IMG/VR virus record: IMGVR_UViG_2534682166_000005
Origin: a virus
Taxonomy: Duplodnaviria; Heunggongvirae; Uroviricota; Caudoviricetes
Length of the DNA stretch: 62,355 bases
Direction: 5' to 3' (one strand)
Part shown: positions 33,001 through 39,000 of the stretch, piece by piece
Layout: every line of letters starts with the position of its first letter
Position numbering within the stretch: the first letter of the stretch is position 1
Position numbers: made by a program

Positions 33001-36000
33001 TTCATTCCCTCAGTCAGGACCGGTTTACTCTGGCGGGTTGTCAGCCAGCCAAGACGGGGCGTATCGTCGTCATATGCCTGGTCAAGGTGCTGTTCGTTGT
33101 AGATATAACGCGTCGGATAGAGTTCCCGGAGTTTCAGGATAACGGCATGTCCGTGATTGTTACGCTCCGGCCCCACAAACGCGTTGTTGTACATACGGCA
33201 GACCTGCGCAATGAGATGAGCGAAAAGCTCCGCATCGAGATGACCAAACCAGTGGGCTACCTGCTCACCATTACTACATCTGATGATATCCAGCGATGAG
33301 CGGTCTCCGTGCTCCAGCCCCTCAGCGGTATCCGCTCCGCATACATACTCTTCATCCGGATCCGGTAGCTCCCAGACCAGCAGATAATTCATCAGCGTCC
33401 GGTGCTGTTCGGCTTTATTCCCGTCACGCAGAGACTGCGCTTTGGTCTTCGTTCCTGTAACCGGTTCAATGTCATAAACAATCAGCGGTGGCGAACAGAA
33501 TGACTCTGCCTGCAGCGTGCTTTCCGCACTGAACACCCGTCGTCCGGACGTCAGAAACGCCTCCTGTGGTGTTGAGGGAAACTCCTGCTTCATTTCCTCA
33601 CGCTGTTCAGTTTCCTTGCAGATGTACCAGTGTTTCTGCTCATCGGTAAGCGTGATGTTCATTGCTTTTTCAACCGCAGAAAAATACGCTGTTTTTTCCC
33701 GTGACAGCTTAAGTCCGCTTTCCGGCACTCTGGCGCTGTATTTGAGATCCTGCCACCAGGCGTAAAAATGGAATTTATAATCCTGTGGCGTCAGCGCCAG
33801 CCCTGATGCAGTGATTTCCTGTGCCCGGTTACTCATCTCGTAAAAATCGCCACCCACACCTTCAGCAGTGGACTCATCAAAAATAATGCACTCATCAGAG
33901 ACGGCATTAAGTGTACCGGTTCGCAGCTCTTTCGCCTTAGCCGGATATTTTGCGCAAATTTTGCCGTGCTCTGAGATATGCAGGCGCTGCACCGTACCTG
34001 AACGGAATGAGGTTGCCACCTGGATACTCGAGCCGTGCCCAAACAGGATATAGCCACCGCTGGCTCCGCTACGACGTTCAACGATGGTGAATGAGGCTCT
34101 CAGCCAGTCAGGAAGATGATCAAACGGTACAGCAATTTTGGTGCGGAAAATTTCACTGGCAGCCTGTTTATCCTGAGCGACAATCCCGCATTTGAGATGC
34201 GGTATGAATAATGCCTGGTCGAGAAGATAAATATCAATGGCCGTGGAAAATCCCAGCTGGCGTGCTTTCAGGATAATATTTTTATTGTGCATGCTCCGGA
34301 ACAACTGGCGCTGCGCCGGTCGCATTCTGAAGGTGACCAGCTCACCTTTTTCGTTCTGTATTTTGTAGAGATGATTGAGCCGCCACCAGGGATTGCTCAG
34401 TTTAGTCATGATGAACAGACGTTGTTCGGCCTCGGTCATTTCTGACGGTTCATCACATCGCGGTTCATTCTTCCGGAATGTCATCCAGTCTCCCCGAATT
34501 ACTCATTTCATGCAGCGATGACACGATGTCACTGACAGGCGTAACAACGCCCCGACGCTGGCTGGTCAGAATATCGGTTTCCGCTCTGAGTTTATCTCTG
34601 GCGGCGTTGGTTCTTTCCCGGTCAGCACGAAGTTTTGGTGCTGTTTCAGCCAGAACGTCCAGCGTCAGCAATGAGCGTTCAATTGACTCGATACGGGCAA
34701 TATTCCGGTCAAGAGCCTGTTCAGCTTTGAGTATTTTGTCGTACAGAGCAACGCGGGTTTCCACGTCAGCCGCCTCTTTCAGGTCGGCGAACATTTTTTT
34801 CAGTGTTCCTGTTACTGAAAGTGCGCGGGCCCGGGTAAACACCAGTTCATCGGCAAGTTCCATTCCGACTGCATCATCTATGAGGTTATCTGCCTCGAGA
34901 TACTTCGCGTATCCACGGTGTCTGACGGCGTGGGTGTTACGCTGAGAAAAAGCATTTGAAGGTGGCAAAAGTCTGGAACCACGAGTCCGTTTCGTTTCTG
35001 CCAAATTTGCGCATTTTTCATCACAACCATCATCGCCTGAAGGCTCGTCATGACTGGAGTTGCCGTCAGATTTCTGCGCACTTTTTTGATCATCAATTTG
35101 CGCATTTTTCTGCGCACTTTTCTCTGTATTTCTGGGGGAGTGTTTGCGCAGTTTAATGTACCGCCGAGCCGTGTCATAACTGATATTGTTCTGACGGCAC
35201 CAGTCCTGAAGCTTTATGCCGGTTTTGACATGTTCGCGTCGAAATGCCTGCTCCAGCTTTTTCCAGTCCAGCTTTGCCATGTCACCTTCTGACGTTCTCT
35301 GTTAAAAACTGATGCACAATGACTGCTGTAAATTTTCAGATTTCACACAGCAGAGCCATGTCTGATTAATGTTTAACCTTATTTAGGTTATATCCGCTTC
35401 ATTCCACTACAGCACCAGATAGGCTGCCTCGCGGATAAATGCCAAAGTCTCCTGATATAGAAACCCGTCGCCACATCGAGCGCTGATCAACATTTGTATA
35501 TTCACTGCGACAGAAAGAATTTATTTTATTGAATAGTTAGAAATACAGAATTGCATGCTTTATAAGCATTGACGCACACTTCATTTTTAGCAATATATTC
35601 TGTTCTCATAGACGATCAGCCCTGCATGCACTGCCGGACACCGTCGGCAATTTTACAGACCTAAGAGGCAATACCAAAAAGCTAACGCGCTTTATCAAGA
35701 CTTGAGCAACCAACCAATAAAAAAAGCACCAGTACCGCTACCAATGCCCATTTCGTCGTTGTTCACAGCATTCTGTGTACCCACTGTATTTCGCGTCATA
35801 TCACCACGTCAGACAATCCTTAAGGATTACATAAGATTTACGCATAATAATGCCCATTTTCAACACAGACAAGGGAATTTATATGTTAAATCAAACGCTA
35901 ACAAAATCTCTTCTTATATTTTTACTTGTCATAATCGTTTCTGTATCCATCATATACATTGTAAGAACTCCAGTCAGACTTGATGTGAACGATGTCACTG

Positions 36001-39000
36001 AGATTAACCAGAAACATCCCATTATTTTTCTCATCCGGCATGGGGAAAGATGCGATCGCTCCCAAAGAATATGTCTTTCAGCACATGAGGGAATCACAGT
36101 AAACGGAGCTAACAAAGCTCAACAATATGGAGATAAATTCAGAAGAATGTTTCCATACTACAGTCTCTATTCTACAGACACACTCCGAACAATGCAGACA
36201 GCCACTTTTTTTTCGGGAGGTAAGACAGCAACTATTCCGGACATATCGACATGTGATGATAACGCAGTAAATAATATCCTTAAAATATCAAAATCAGATC
36301 ATGTTACTGTGATTTTCACACATAATCACTGTCTGTCCAGAATTGCAAAAAAAATGAATGGATGGAGATTTAAACCTGATTATATGGGCACACTGGTTCT
36401 GCATCGGGAAAATCACAATCTGATTCTCGACGGACATTTAAAACCAAACGAGCTTACCCAGTGATCCATTTGTTGATAATGCACTGGCATTGATTCAGGT
36501 TATATCTCTCCTCATAAAAAAGGCCAGCGATTGAGCTGGCTCTGTTAATCGAGGCATTGCATCCTGATGTACTCCTGCAGGTAGTTAACCTGCGCGGTTA
36601 TCTTGTCGATTCCACTTCGGAGACGGTAATAATTGAGTTCAGCATCTGCTGTAAGTCCTGAGCTTTCTCCATCGCCCATGCCGCTGGCTCCGGTCGTTGA
36701 CTTTGCACAGGTGGCGGCGACTTGCAGGCGCTTACGCCCAGCAGAAACATCAGCACGGAGACTTTCAATAGTCGCGTTAGCATCAGCAAGCTCCCTAGTG
36801 TATCTGGCATCGAGTGCAGCAACATCACGCTGGCGCTGCTGTATGTCAGCAATGGTGGCGTTCGCCTGGCTGAGTTTTGTCTTCGCATCATCTCGCTGCT
36901 CTTTGTAGGTGATGGCGTTATCACGGTAATGGTCTGTTGCCAGCCACAGCGATCCACAACCAAGCAGCAGGACAATAAGCACGCCATACAGCACACGATT
37001 CATATCACCACCAACGGATTGCCCAGACCAGAACAGCAATTGCCACAATACGAATGGCAAAAGCTGCCGCTCTTGTTAAATCCAGACTTGCTGGCGTCTC
37101 CACCTCAATGCCTTTCATAATGGACAACCTCAGAAAGAATCTTTTATACTTCCTCACAGGGAAAGAACCTCCCTACCCATAATTTCTCCCTTGCCTTATT
37201 CAAGGTCAGAAACACAAAACCCCGCTTGCTGCCAACAAACGGGGTTTTTACTTTTACTCACTTAAATTTTGCCAGTTCGCAGGGTTTCGTGTTATCCGTT
37301 CGCGTTGGTCAACGGCATTTTTCAGCAGAATATTCTGCTTATCTGTCGATACTCCAGCACGCCAGCGCGCTCTCCTGGTCACGCCGCGATACCTGCCCGT
37401 AACAGTTATTTGAGCGGTTCCGACAGTCCCTGCCGCCGTCATATATCCATCGGCGGATTTCAGCACATGCACCTTTCCGGTCTCCTGCGTTCAGTTTCCG
37501 GTAAAACGTTGAGGTGAAGCATTTCGAAGGCCCGATGTTGTACGGACAGAATGACGCGATGCCCGCTTTCTGCGGTTCGGTCAGTGGCACTCTGATGTTT
37601 TTCTCCACCCATGCCAGCGCCTTATCACGCTCAATGGCGTTAACCCGGTCGCATTTTTCCTTCGACAACTTCATGCCCGGAACGACAGGTTTGCCATCCA
37701 CCAGGATGGCACCGCGGCAGATAGTCCAGATACCCGCACCATCACGGTATGCCGTGGTGTGGTTACCTTCTTTTTCGTCAAGAAACTGGTCGAGGATTTC
37801 AGGCGCAGAAGCGCCCGCAGCAATCAGCGCCAGAACGACCGCTGATAAACCATAGCGGAATTTCCTGCTCATCAGCTTACTCTCCCCGCGCCGCCTTACG
37901 CCGGTCCTCTTTGATTTTGAAATACAGGTTAGTCAGGTACGTCAGCAGCCCAAACAGCAGACTCCCCAGCACGCCTATTGCCGCCCACTGAGACGGGGAA
38001 ACCCTGTCCAGCAACTGCAGGAACCAGTAGCCCGTTCCCACCGCTGACGTGGTGTATGACACACCTGTTGTGATTTTTTCCATCTGGTTCATACCCCGCC
38101 TCCCGCAATCCGGAAGCTCACAACAATAAAAAAGACCACCGGCACACACCGATGGTCCCTTGCGCATGCTTACATCATCATGTCGCTGTCAGGTGTAGGT
38201 TCACCGCCATCTGAAGCACTCCCGTCACCCGCGATACCTTCCGGCTCAGGAACCGCTGGTACGCCCAGCAGCTCATCCAGAATGGCATCCACTTCTGCAT
38301 CAAGACGCGACTCAAGGTTCTGGCGAAGTTTCTGTTTCAGTGCGCTCCGGACTTCTTCAGAGCGCAGGACTTCCTTCACTGCCTCTGCAGTGACCAGGGA
38401 TGTGATTTCTGACATGGGATTTTCTCGCTGAAAGGGGTTGTTAAGGAGTAACGGGCTCTTCGGGTTTGCTTCCGGCTGACTGACTGGCGCTGATTTTCTC
38501 AGCGGCCCTTTTATCAATCTGCCTGCACCAGAAATCGCGCACAGCCCTGTACCCACCCGAAAGAAGATACAGCACACAGACCGCCGTACAGAAGTACAGC
38601 ATCACCTGATGAATAAATGTCATAATTTCTTACCGTTATGGTTGACAATGAGAATTGTTTTCATTTAAAAACCAATGTACGAAAGCATCTTTTCTTTACA
38701 TTCTCCATTGGGATTACCTCCGCCAGCTTCCATTCCTGCCGCTGGCGGCTTTTTTTAGCAATTATGCGGCTGCTCCAGCTTTGTTTGCTTTAACTTCCAC
38801 CGTATCAATAAGTACAGGGTAGGTTTCTGCACTACCTGTAATATCCGTAATGACAAACCTGTTGAGTCCATTAGCAGTATTGGCCCATTTCACCAGGTCA
38901 AACGCCTGTCCATCCACACCATCGAGCACCGGAGTAACATTAATGCTGTTACTGCCCTTAAATTTAAATGCAAGCGTATGCCAGTCATGGTCGAATGCGC

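Follow-up and report, generated by a model that had tools for sequence, protein, structure and literature searches.

A 62,355-nt stretch of viral DNA from the Caudoviricetes (IMG/VR record IMGVR_UViG_2534682166_000005; hereafter the window) carries, between its lysis cassette and its terminase genes, a gene for a histidine phosphatase of the Ais/PmrG subfamily (coding sequence 35883..36464, plus strand, stop codon included; 193 aa). The gene is preceded by a direct repeat of the type of the PmrA/BasR box, i.e. the operator of the host regulon for the remodelling of lipopolysaccharide (LPS). We propose, with moderate confidence, that the product is a lysogenic-conversion phosphatase that is gated by the PmrAB (BasRS) two-component system, acts on the periplasmic side and dephosphorylates the inner core of the LPS as PmrG does. 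The case in its present state would amount to a well-supported annotation with a proposed mechanism, and it is not a surprise. An automatic annotation of the gene already exists in RefSeq, databases label it, and our literature search turned up no publication on a prophage-encoded Ais/PmrG homolog. What is new here is the recognition that the gene belongs to a distinct Ais-family clade of prophages that is recurrent, under selection and has cousins on plasmids. To the preliminary description of this DNA, which had pointed out the phosphatase gene, the present analysis adds the PmrA/BasR-box promoter candidate, the spread of the family on prophages and plasmids, the start codon and the decomposition of the upstream DNA.

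The phosphatase and its relation to Ais and PmrG

Homology and fold searches, named in the preliminary description as the check on its claim of an Ais-like enzyme, both lead to the expected family. In Pfam, His_Phos_1 (PF00300) is the only match of the protein (E=1.1e-6; 28.9 bits versus a cut-off of 21.7) and there is no Bor homology, whereas in NCBIfam the model NF011945 (PRK15416, "LPS core heptose(II)-phosphate phosphatase") matches residues 10-187 with 202 bits versus a cut-off of 142 (E=7e-60). The NCBIfam equivalog model for PmrG (NF052369) scores 113.4 bits, which is below its curated cut-off of 170 bits, i.e. the level at which the same function is expected. The claimed resemblance to Ais thus holds at the level of the subfamily, and does not extend to equivalence with PmrG. 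A sequence search of the PDB with the phosphatase gave nothing at E<=1, PHROG held no family for it, and the defence models of PADLOC-DB gave no match at E<=0.01.

The RHG motif that had been noted is present as R52, H53 and G54 (36036..36044, plus strand). In an alignment of 18 family members these three residues are invariant, as are E55, R56, C57, D58, R59, S60, C64, H147, H149 and C150, and R102 is near-invariant; we assign the enzyme to branch 1 of the histidine phosphatase superfamily, which is marked by an RHG motif containing the nucleophilic histidine and, further downstream, by an Arg and a His that line the phosphate pocket (here R59, R102 and H147/H149). The AlphaFold model that was obtained with this alignment as input (predicted local distance difference test 87.8; predicted template-modelling score 0.82) shows a helix at the N-terminus (residues 2-28) and, after it, a compact alpha/beta domain. 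The best 50 matches listed by Foldseek against the PDB all belong to the histidine phosphatase superfamily (probability 1.00, template-modelling scores 0.45-0.57), with RosC, the C-terminal domain of MutT1, PhoE, SixA and PGAM5 among the top matches. The compact branch 1 phosphatases of the SixA/PhoE type share their fold and catalytic residues with the window protein, but they are cytoplasmic, only 10-18% identical to it and active on other substrates.

The signal or transmembrane N-terminus that had been claimed is likewise found, in the form of a hydrophobic helix of 19 residues (residues ~9-27, SLLIFLLVIIVSVSIIYIV; 35907..35963, plus strand), which would be either a signal peptide or an uncleaved signal anchor. 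According to the alignment, the A-X-A cleavage site of PmrG/Ais (THA/AWS in chromosomal Ais) is absent from this N-terminus, and a signal anchor appears as likely as a cleaved signal peptide. The open reading frame (ORF) is taken to begin at ATG 35883, because three other lineages lack the methionine further upstream at 35850, which would yield a protein of 204 aa and which coincides in part with the predicted -10 hexamer; the start at 35850 was rejected. ATG 35883 is the sole start that is conserved across lineages and the one that PGAP chose in E. coli O104:H4, and it is preceded at 6 nt by a Shine-Dalgarno-like AAGGGA (35871..35876, plus strand) with an aligned GGA or AGGA in the homologous loci.

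The window protein is 38% identical to Ais of E. coli K-12, 39-40% to PmrG of Salmonella and 39% to the TraG protein of IncI plasmids (see below), whereas the orthologous K-12 Ais and Salmonella PmrG are 68% identical to one another. In a neighbour-joining (NJ) tree the prophage-borne proteins form a clade of their own, to which neither the chromosomal Ais/PmrG proteins nor IncI TraG belong and which lies no nearer to Ais than IncI TraG does. We therefore place the window protein within the Ais/PmrG subfamily as a deep paralog, and not as a PmrG equivalog. With PmrG and Ais it shares the PRK15416 subfamily, a size of ~190-200 aa, an N-terminal export segment and the active-site blocks RHGERCDRS...C...FTHNHCL, but those genes are chromosomal and stand beside arnBCADTEF, whereas the window gene is on a prophage. 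The ratio of nonsynonymous to synonymous substitutions (dN/dS) is 0.18-0.24 in comparisons with other prophage lineages (63-76% protein identity), from which we conclude that selection maintains the gene.

The candidate PmrA/BasR-box promoter

Upstream of the phosphatase gene lies the direct repeat CTTAAG-GATTA-CATAAG (35819..35835, plus strand), followed after a 10-nt spacer (ATTTACGCAT) by a predicted -10 hexamer AATAAT (35846..35851, plus strand). The published PmrA box consists of the half-sites CTTAAG and NTTAAT separated by a 5-bp spacer, and the footprinted box of pbgP reads CTTAAT-N5-CCTAAG (PMC3973317). The layout in the window is that of the K-12 arnB promoter (CTTAAG-GTTAA-GTTAAT, 10 nt, TAAAAT), and the K-12 eptA box (CTTAAG-GTTGG-CTTAAT) is found 66 nt before its start codon. 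The motif of the prophage gene, in other words, is of the PmrA-box type of the host's LPS-remodelling regulon.

The pattern CTTAAK-N7-TAAK has a single match on both strands of the window (0.26 expected), which lies 48 nt upstream of the ATG. A simple proportional estimate puts the chance of finding it within 100 nt upstream of the gene on the correct strand at ~2e-4, a value that has to be read with the post hoc relaxation of the second half-site in mind. Elsewhere in the 459 kb of loci that were fetched for comparison (labelled L below), the pattern recovers the boxes of K-12 arnB and Salmonella pbgP and three other sites, one of which is repeated in five near-identical loci; its relaxed form also detects the eptA box.

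Because the pattern for the second half-site was relaxed after the sequence had been seen, the comparative evidence weighs more. Six diverged lineages of prophages have the box layout in an unchanged position, and L027 and L040 among them carry the canonical form CTTAAG-N5-YTTAAG. In each lineage the box is located 64-70 nt before the start codon, while the DNA on either side is often unalignable, and the 10-nt spacing as well as a hexamer AATAAT, TATAAT or TATATT are kept in all of them. L024 and L026 have the same box as the window, a spacer ATTTACAAAT and AATAAT; the same spacer and hexamer follow CTTAAG-GATCA-CATAAG in L025; CTTAAG-GATTC-CTTAAG in L027 and CTTAAG-GATTT-TTTAAG in L040 are followed by AATTGCCATA and AATTACAGCA, respectively, and by AATAAT; in L030 and L032 the box GTTAAG-ATTTT-CTTAAT precedes ATTTAAGAAA and TATATT; and in L004 and L006 the arrangement is ATTAAT-TGCCT-CATAAG, AATCGCAAGT and TATAAT. 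No PmrA-type box is found upstream of IncI traG or of the plasmid paralog that is linked to an autotransporter gene of the SPATE type (serine protease autotransporters of Enterobacteriaceae). The intergenic regions of K-12 and Salmonella contain no direct box on the ais/pmrG strand either, only the box that is oriented towards arnB/pbgP; a near-canonical direct box on the gene's own strand, at 10 nt from the -10 hexamer, is a property of the prophage gene and not of PmrG/Ais.

Since the conserved layout matches that of arnB, pbgP and eptA of the host, the prophage genes are probably activated by BasR/PmrA. A scan for sigma-70 promoters gave seven promoter-like matches (4.4 expected), none of them convincing upstream of the phosphatase gene, which fits an activator-dependent promoter without a -35 element.

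The remainder of the upstream DNA has a different origin. The preliminary description had presumed that the gene has a promoter of its own in ~570 bp of AT-rich upstream sequence, which stands in so far as a promoter-like motif is present in the last ~65 bp. A dedicated promoter region of 570-600 bp was rejected, as most of it consists of the leader of the small terminase subunit gene terS and a lipoprotein pseudogene. The terS leader (35281..35455, minus strand) is common to related phages of the Sepvirinae, and 34401-35455 aligns at 84-85% with PhiR12_3 and P13374. The adjoining 35447-35804 is ~78% identical at the DNA level to late-region DNA of other lambdoid prophages, including E. coli SE11 with an intact gene, and contains a decayed gene for a 60-aa phage lipoprotein (35617..35799, minus strand; phrog_7528), the window copy of which is interrupted by in-frame stops and lacks a start. 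The lipoprotein gene is intact in L003 (5171-5353), L004, L006 and L027, where it lies on the phage late strand and encodes 60 aa that start with MSRKHWTHRMPRTAAKWALVAILVPFLLVGC and include the lipobox LLVGC, and in all lineages that were checked, it and the Ais-like gene are arranged head-to-head. The only upstream part that is specific to the phosphatase cassette is ~35808-35882. No RNA family of Rfam was found in 35100-36700.

Two side observations concern these elements. The lipoprotein gene is also found just downstream of an M15 endolysin gene in E. coli SE11 (directly after it) and in the Stx2e prophage of UMNF18, with no phosphatase annotated there. A second PmrA-box-like sequence, CTTAATACGTGATTAAT, occurs in L029-L034 (e.g. 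at position 5840 of L032, plus strand) and at position 6443 of L025; it is situated ~1.3 kb past the Ais-like gene, beyond the holin genes, in the prophage lineage with M15 endolysins, and has no obvious gene downstream.

Slot, host prophage and spread of the family

As the preliminary description stated, the gene is oriented against all of its neighbours: 35850/35883-36464 is the single plus-strand ORF within 35281-36464, antisense to the phage late genes and placed between terS on the left (34465..35280, minus strand; labelled terminase or DNA packaging protein in O104:H4, GER2 and P13374) and the Rz spanin gene, the last gene of the lysis cassette, on the right (36545..37060, minus strand; Pfam Phage_lysis, E=1e-36). 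Further neighbours on the minus strand are a lysozyme gene (37339..37872), a P21-type holin gene and a gene for a NanS-p-like SASA esterase (38762..40672). Between the convergent stops of the phosphatase and Rz genes, a terminator scan found a GC-rich hairpin GCCAGC-N6-GCTGGC (36523..36540) with its T-run on the minus strand.

In PhiR12_3 there is no gene at this Rz-terS junction (~300 bp); the Stx2 phage P13374 of O104:H4 has a Rha-like regulator there, and lambda has bor, on the opposite strand. The gene has a GC content of 37-39%, its upstream spacer of 41-42%, and the flanks of 50-55%. The moron status that had been proposed is borne out by this variable junction and distinct GC content, together with the promoter-like motif and the downstream hairpin (promoter and terminator activity being predicted), and we classify the gene accordingly. 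The parallel with lambda that had been drawn is also correct, since bor immediately follows the spanin gene Rz, is read from the other strand and precedes the packaging genes. The bor product, moreover, is envelope-directed like the proposed phosphatase (it is annotated as an outer membrane protein for host serum resistance), and bor is expressed in lysogens; Bor is nevertheless an outer-membrane lipoprotein and an unrelated protein, so that the likeness is positional alone. A further parallel is that with gtrABC and oac, the O-antigen modification genes of Shigella and Salmonella phages, which are likewise prophage genes for enzymes that change the LPS of the lysogen; these decorate the O-antigen with glucosyl or acetyl groups, whereas the window protein would take a phosphate off the inner core and appears to be tied to a two-component system of the host.

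The segment 35281-36544 (1264 bp) matches at 100% identity a prophage found in E. coli O104:H4 str. 2011C-3493 as well as in its outbreak relatives, and it is present at >=99% identity, with the gene intact, in 43 of the 5426 complete E. coli genomes. In RefSeq the O104:H4 prophage region runs from an integrase via cI/cro/cII and Q to head genes of the N4-gp56 type and contains no stx genes; we class the host prophage of the phosphatase gene as an stx-less, Stx-phage-like (Sepvirinae) lambdoid prophage. Among sequenced phages only the Stx1 phage GER2 (Sepvirinae) has the gene, with a coding sequence that is annotated short (273 bp) and that tblastn extends to a full-length intact gene. Elsewhere in the window, only ~760 bp separate the nanS-p-like esterase gene from Q (40673-41436), with a dip in GC to 41%; ~44400-46200 (NC_018658.1 2541971-2543699) corresponds to a RefSeq toxin-antitoxin cluster in the early region of the identical O104:H4 prophage (hokD, a toxin of the Doc family, and a RelE/ParE toxin together with a helix-turn-helix partner); and ARAGORN finds no tRNA genes in the whole window.

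Copies detectable at >=66% DNA identity are present in ~83 of the 5426 complete E. coli genomes (~1.5%). The homologs in other prophages (54-76% identical) occupy the same slot, immediately beyond the final gene of the lysis cassette and in the opposite orientation, even though these prophages have other lysis cassettes (with GH108 or M15 endolysins) and the slot adjoins packaging modules of at least four kinds (Terminase_2/Terminase_6N, Nu1/GpA, Terminase_4/TerL with HNH, and that of the Sepvirinae). Truncated or frameshifted copies occur in L028, L034 and as P0066. The last of these, a truncated Ais-like protein of UMNF18, is labelled "transcriptional activator AfrS", a label that is unverified and no evidence of a regulatory role; AfrS acts with the AraC-type AfrR in the AF/R1 pilus operon. 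Some of the Ais-bearing prophages have, in the interval from the Q/methylase region to the holins, a gene for a regulator of the AraC family (L032 6573-7424 and L040 8103-8831, both on the minus strand).

On plasmids, traG of the IncI-type transfer region is a 39-45%-identical family member that is present in ~1400 plasmid records, for example in the IncI-gamma plasmid pN441 (L046 2450-2962). This TraG of IncI1 and IncI-gamma plasmids (R64-type) has family, length and carriage on a mobile element in common with the window protein, but its gene runs in the direction of the tra operon in which it is embedded and lacks an upstream box of the PmrA type. In the pESBL plasmid of O104:H4 traG is dispensable for transfer, and the table in that study labels TraG as this phosphatase (PMC4288162). 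Two further paralogs, 43% and 66% identical, are found on virulence-type plasmids (L008-L011 6001-6582 and L045 5001-5582); one plasmid paralog adjoins genes for an EAL protein, two alpha/beta hydrolases and an S6 SPATE autotransporter, and the other is flanked by insertion sequence elements and lies near AIDA-I and a polysaccharide lyase gene.

Proposed function and its alternatives

Taken together, the gene would be a self-contained lysogenic-conversion cassette (moron) of an stx-less, Sepvirinae-like lambdoid prophage. Its transcription, antisense to the Q-dependent late operon, would probably begin at ~25 nt before ATG 35883 and be driven by a promoter in which a PmrA/BasR box takes the place of the -35 region, such that the gene is switched on with the LPS-remodelling regulon of the host (i.e. 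by Fe3+ or Al3+ and mild acid) rather than constitutively. The hydrophobic N-terminus would export the protein or anchor it at the periplasmic face of the inner membrane, where the phosphatase would most likely cleave a phosphate off the inner core of the LPS, probably that of heptose (Hep) II, and thereby lower the negative charge of the envelope. According to a passage in PMC8129183 that cites Nishino 2006, PmrG of Salmonella, the one protein for which this activity is known, dephosphorylates Hep II; given the 38-40% identity and the missed PmrG equivalog cut-off, we infer, rather than assign, Hep(II)-phosphate as the substrate of the prophage enzyme.

Several points weigh against this proposal. 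The same low identity and missed cut-off imply that the substrate may differ. The second half-site of the window, CATAAG, has an A where the consensus has a T (position 2), it was matched by a pattern that had been relaxed once the window sequence was in view, and both the -10 hexamer and the transcription start are predicted. The hairpin downstream of the gene, when read on the plus strand, folds and is then followed by just UCUGUU, which makes it a good terminator for the minus strand and a weak one for the plus strand. The host, furthermore, already carries a chromosomal ais. The phenotype that is reported for Salmonella PmrG is iron or aluminium tolerance, and a benefit of the phosphatase to the lysogen is what we infer. 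The polymyxin phenotype that had been suggested in the preliminary description is doubtful, as deletion of pmrG in a PmrA-constitutive E. coli left the resistance to polymyxin B unchanged (PMC8129183).

Some of these points can be read in favour of an enzyme of the same fold and location that acts on another envelope phosphate and does not duplicate chromosomal Ais, which we consider possible, though clearly less probable than the Hep(II)-type activity. Candidate substrates would be Hep(I)-phosphate or Hep(I)-pyrophosphoethanolamine, the 1-diphosphate of lipid A, or a phosphorylated periplasmic or polysaccharide intermediate. The distance to Ais/PmrG, which is large compared to that between the two orthologs, the separate NJ clade, the N-terminus without an A-X-A site (and possibly membrane-anchored) and the little that a redundant copy would add to a host that keeps its own ais all argue for such a divergence. 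The active-site blocks, however, are essentially identical to those of Ais/PmrG, and the PmrA-box promoter would put the gene in the regulon of LPS-remodelling genes.

A more far-reaching variant of this idea, which we regard as rather unlikely, holds that the prophage and IncI clades edit a different LPS or envelope phosphate and thereby the receptor surface for superinfecting phages or conjugative pili, with the prophage versions wired to PmrAB so as to be on just in the gut or under metal stress. Less likely still is exclusion as such, i.e. a change in the LPS core that reduces the adsorption of core-dependent phages or recognition by the thin-pilus adhesin of IncI plasmids, and so protects lysogen and prophage from competitors, tolerance to metals or peptides being beside the point. 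The strong association of the family with mobile elements, on prophages as well as in the IncI transfer region, and the paralogs beside SPATE and AIDA autotransporter genes are in line with exclusion, as is the fact that phage morons at the Rz-side slot are often surface-modifying. Against it stand the lack of a match to the PADLOC defence models and a PmrA-gated promoter, which would be odd for a constitutive exclusion function; moreover, Stx-type short-tailed phages are reported to use BamA and not the LPS core. Finally, the adjacent lipoprotein pseudogene and the broken phosphatase copies elsewhere might suggest a silent or decaying passenger without a current function in this prophage, but purifying selection (dN/dS ~0.2 across lineages), an intact ORF with all catalytic residues, and a promoter motif and ribosome-binding site that are conserved amid diverged surrounding DNA make this very improbable.

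If the PmrAB-gated conversion that we favour is correct, a prophage accessory gene would have joined the PmrAB/BasRS envelope-remodelling regulon of its host by way of the host's own operator, and the charge of the LPS core of a lysogen would depend on its prophage content in combination with environmental signals (Fe3+, Al3+, acid). The gene is carried by the 2011 outbreak lineage of E. coli O104:H4 and by ~1.5% of the complete E. coli genomes, and establishing a function for this clade would improve the annotation of many mobile elements in one step, given the related genes on ~1400 IncI-type plasmids. The locus would then also provide a simple test case of how morons acquire host-specific regulation.

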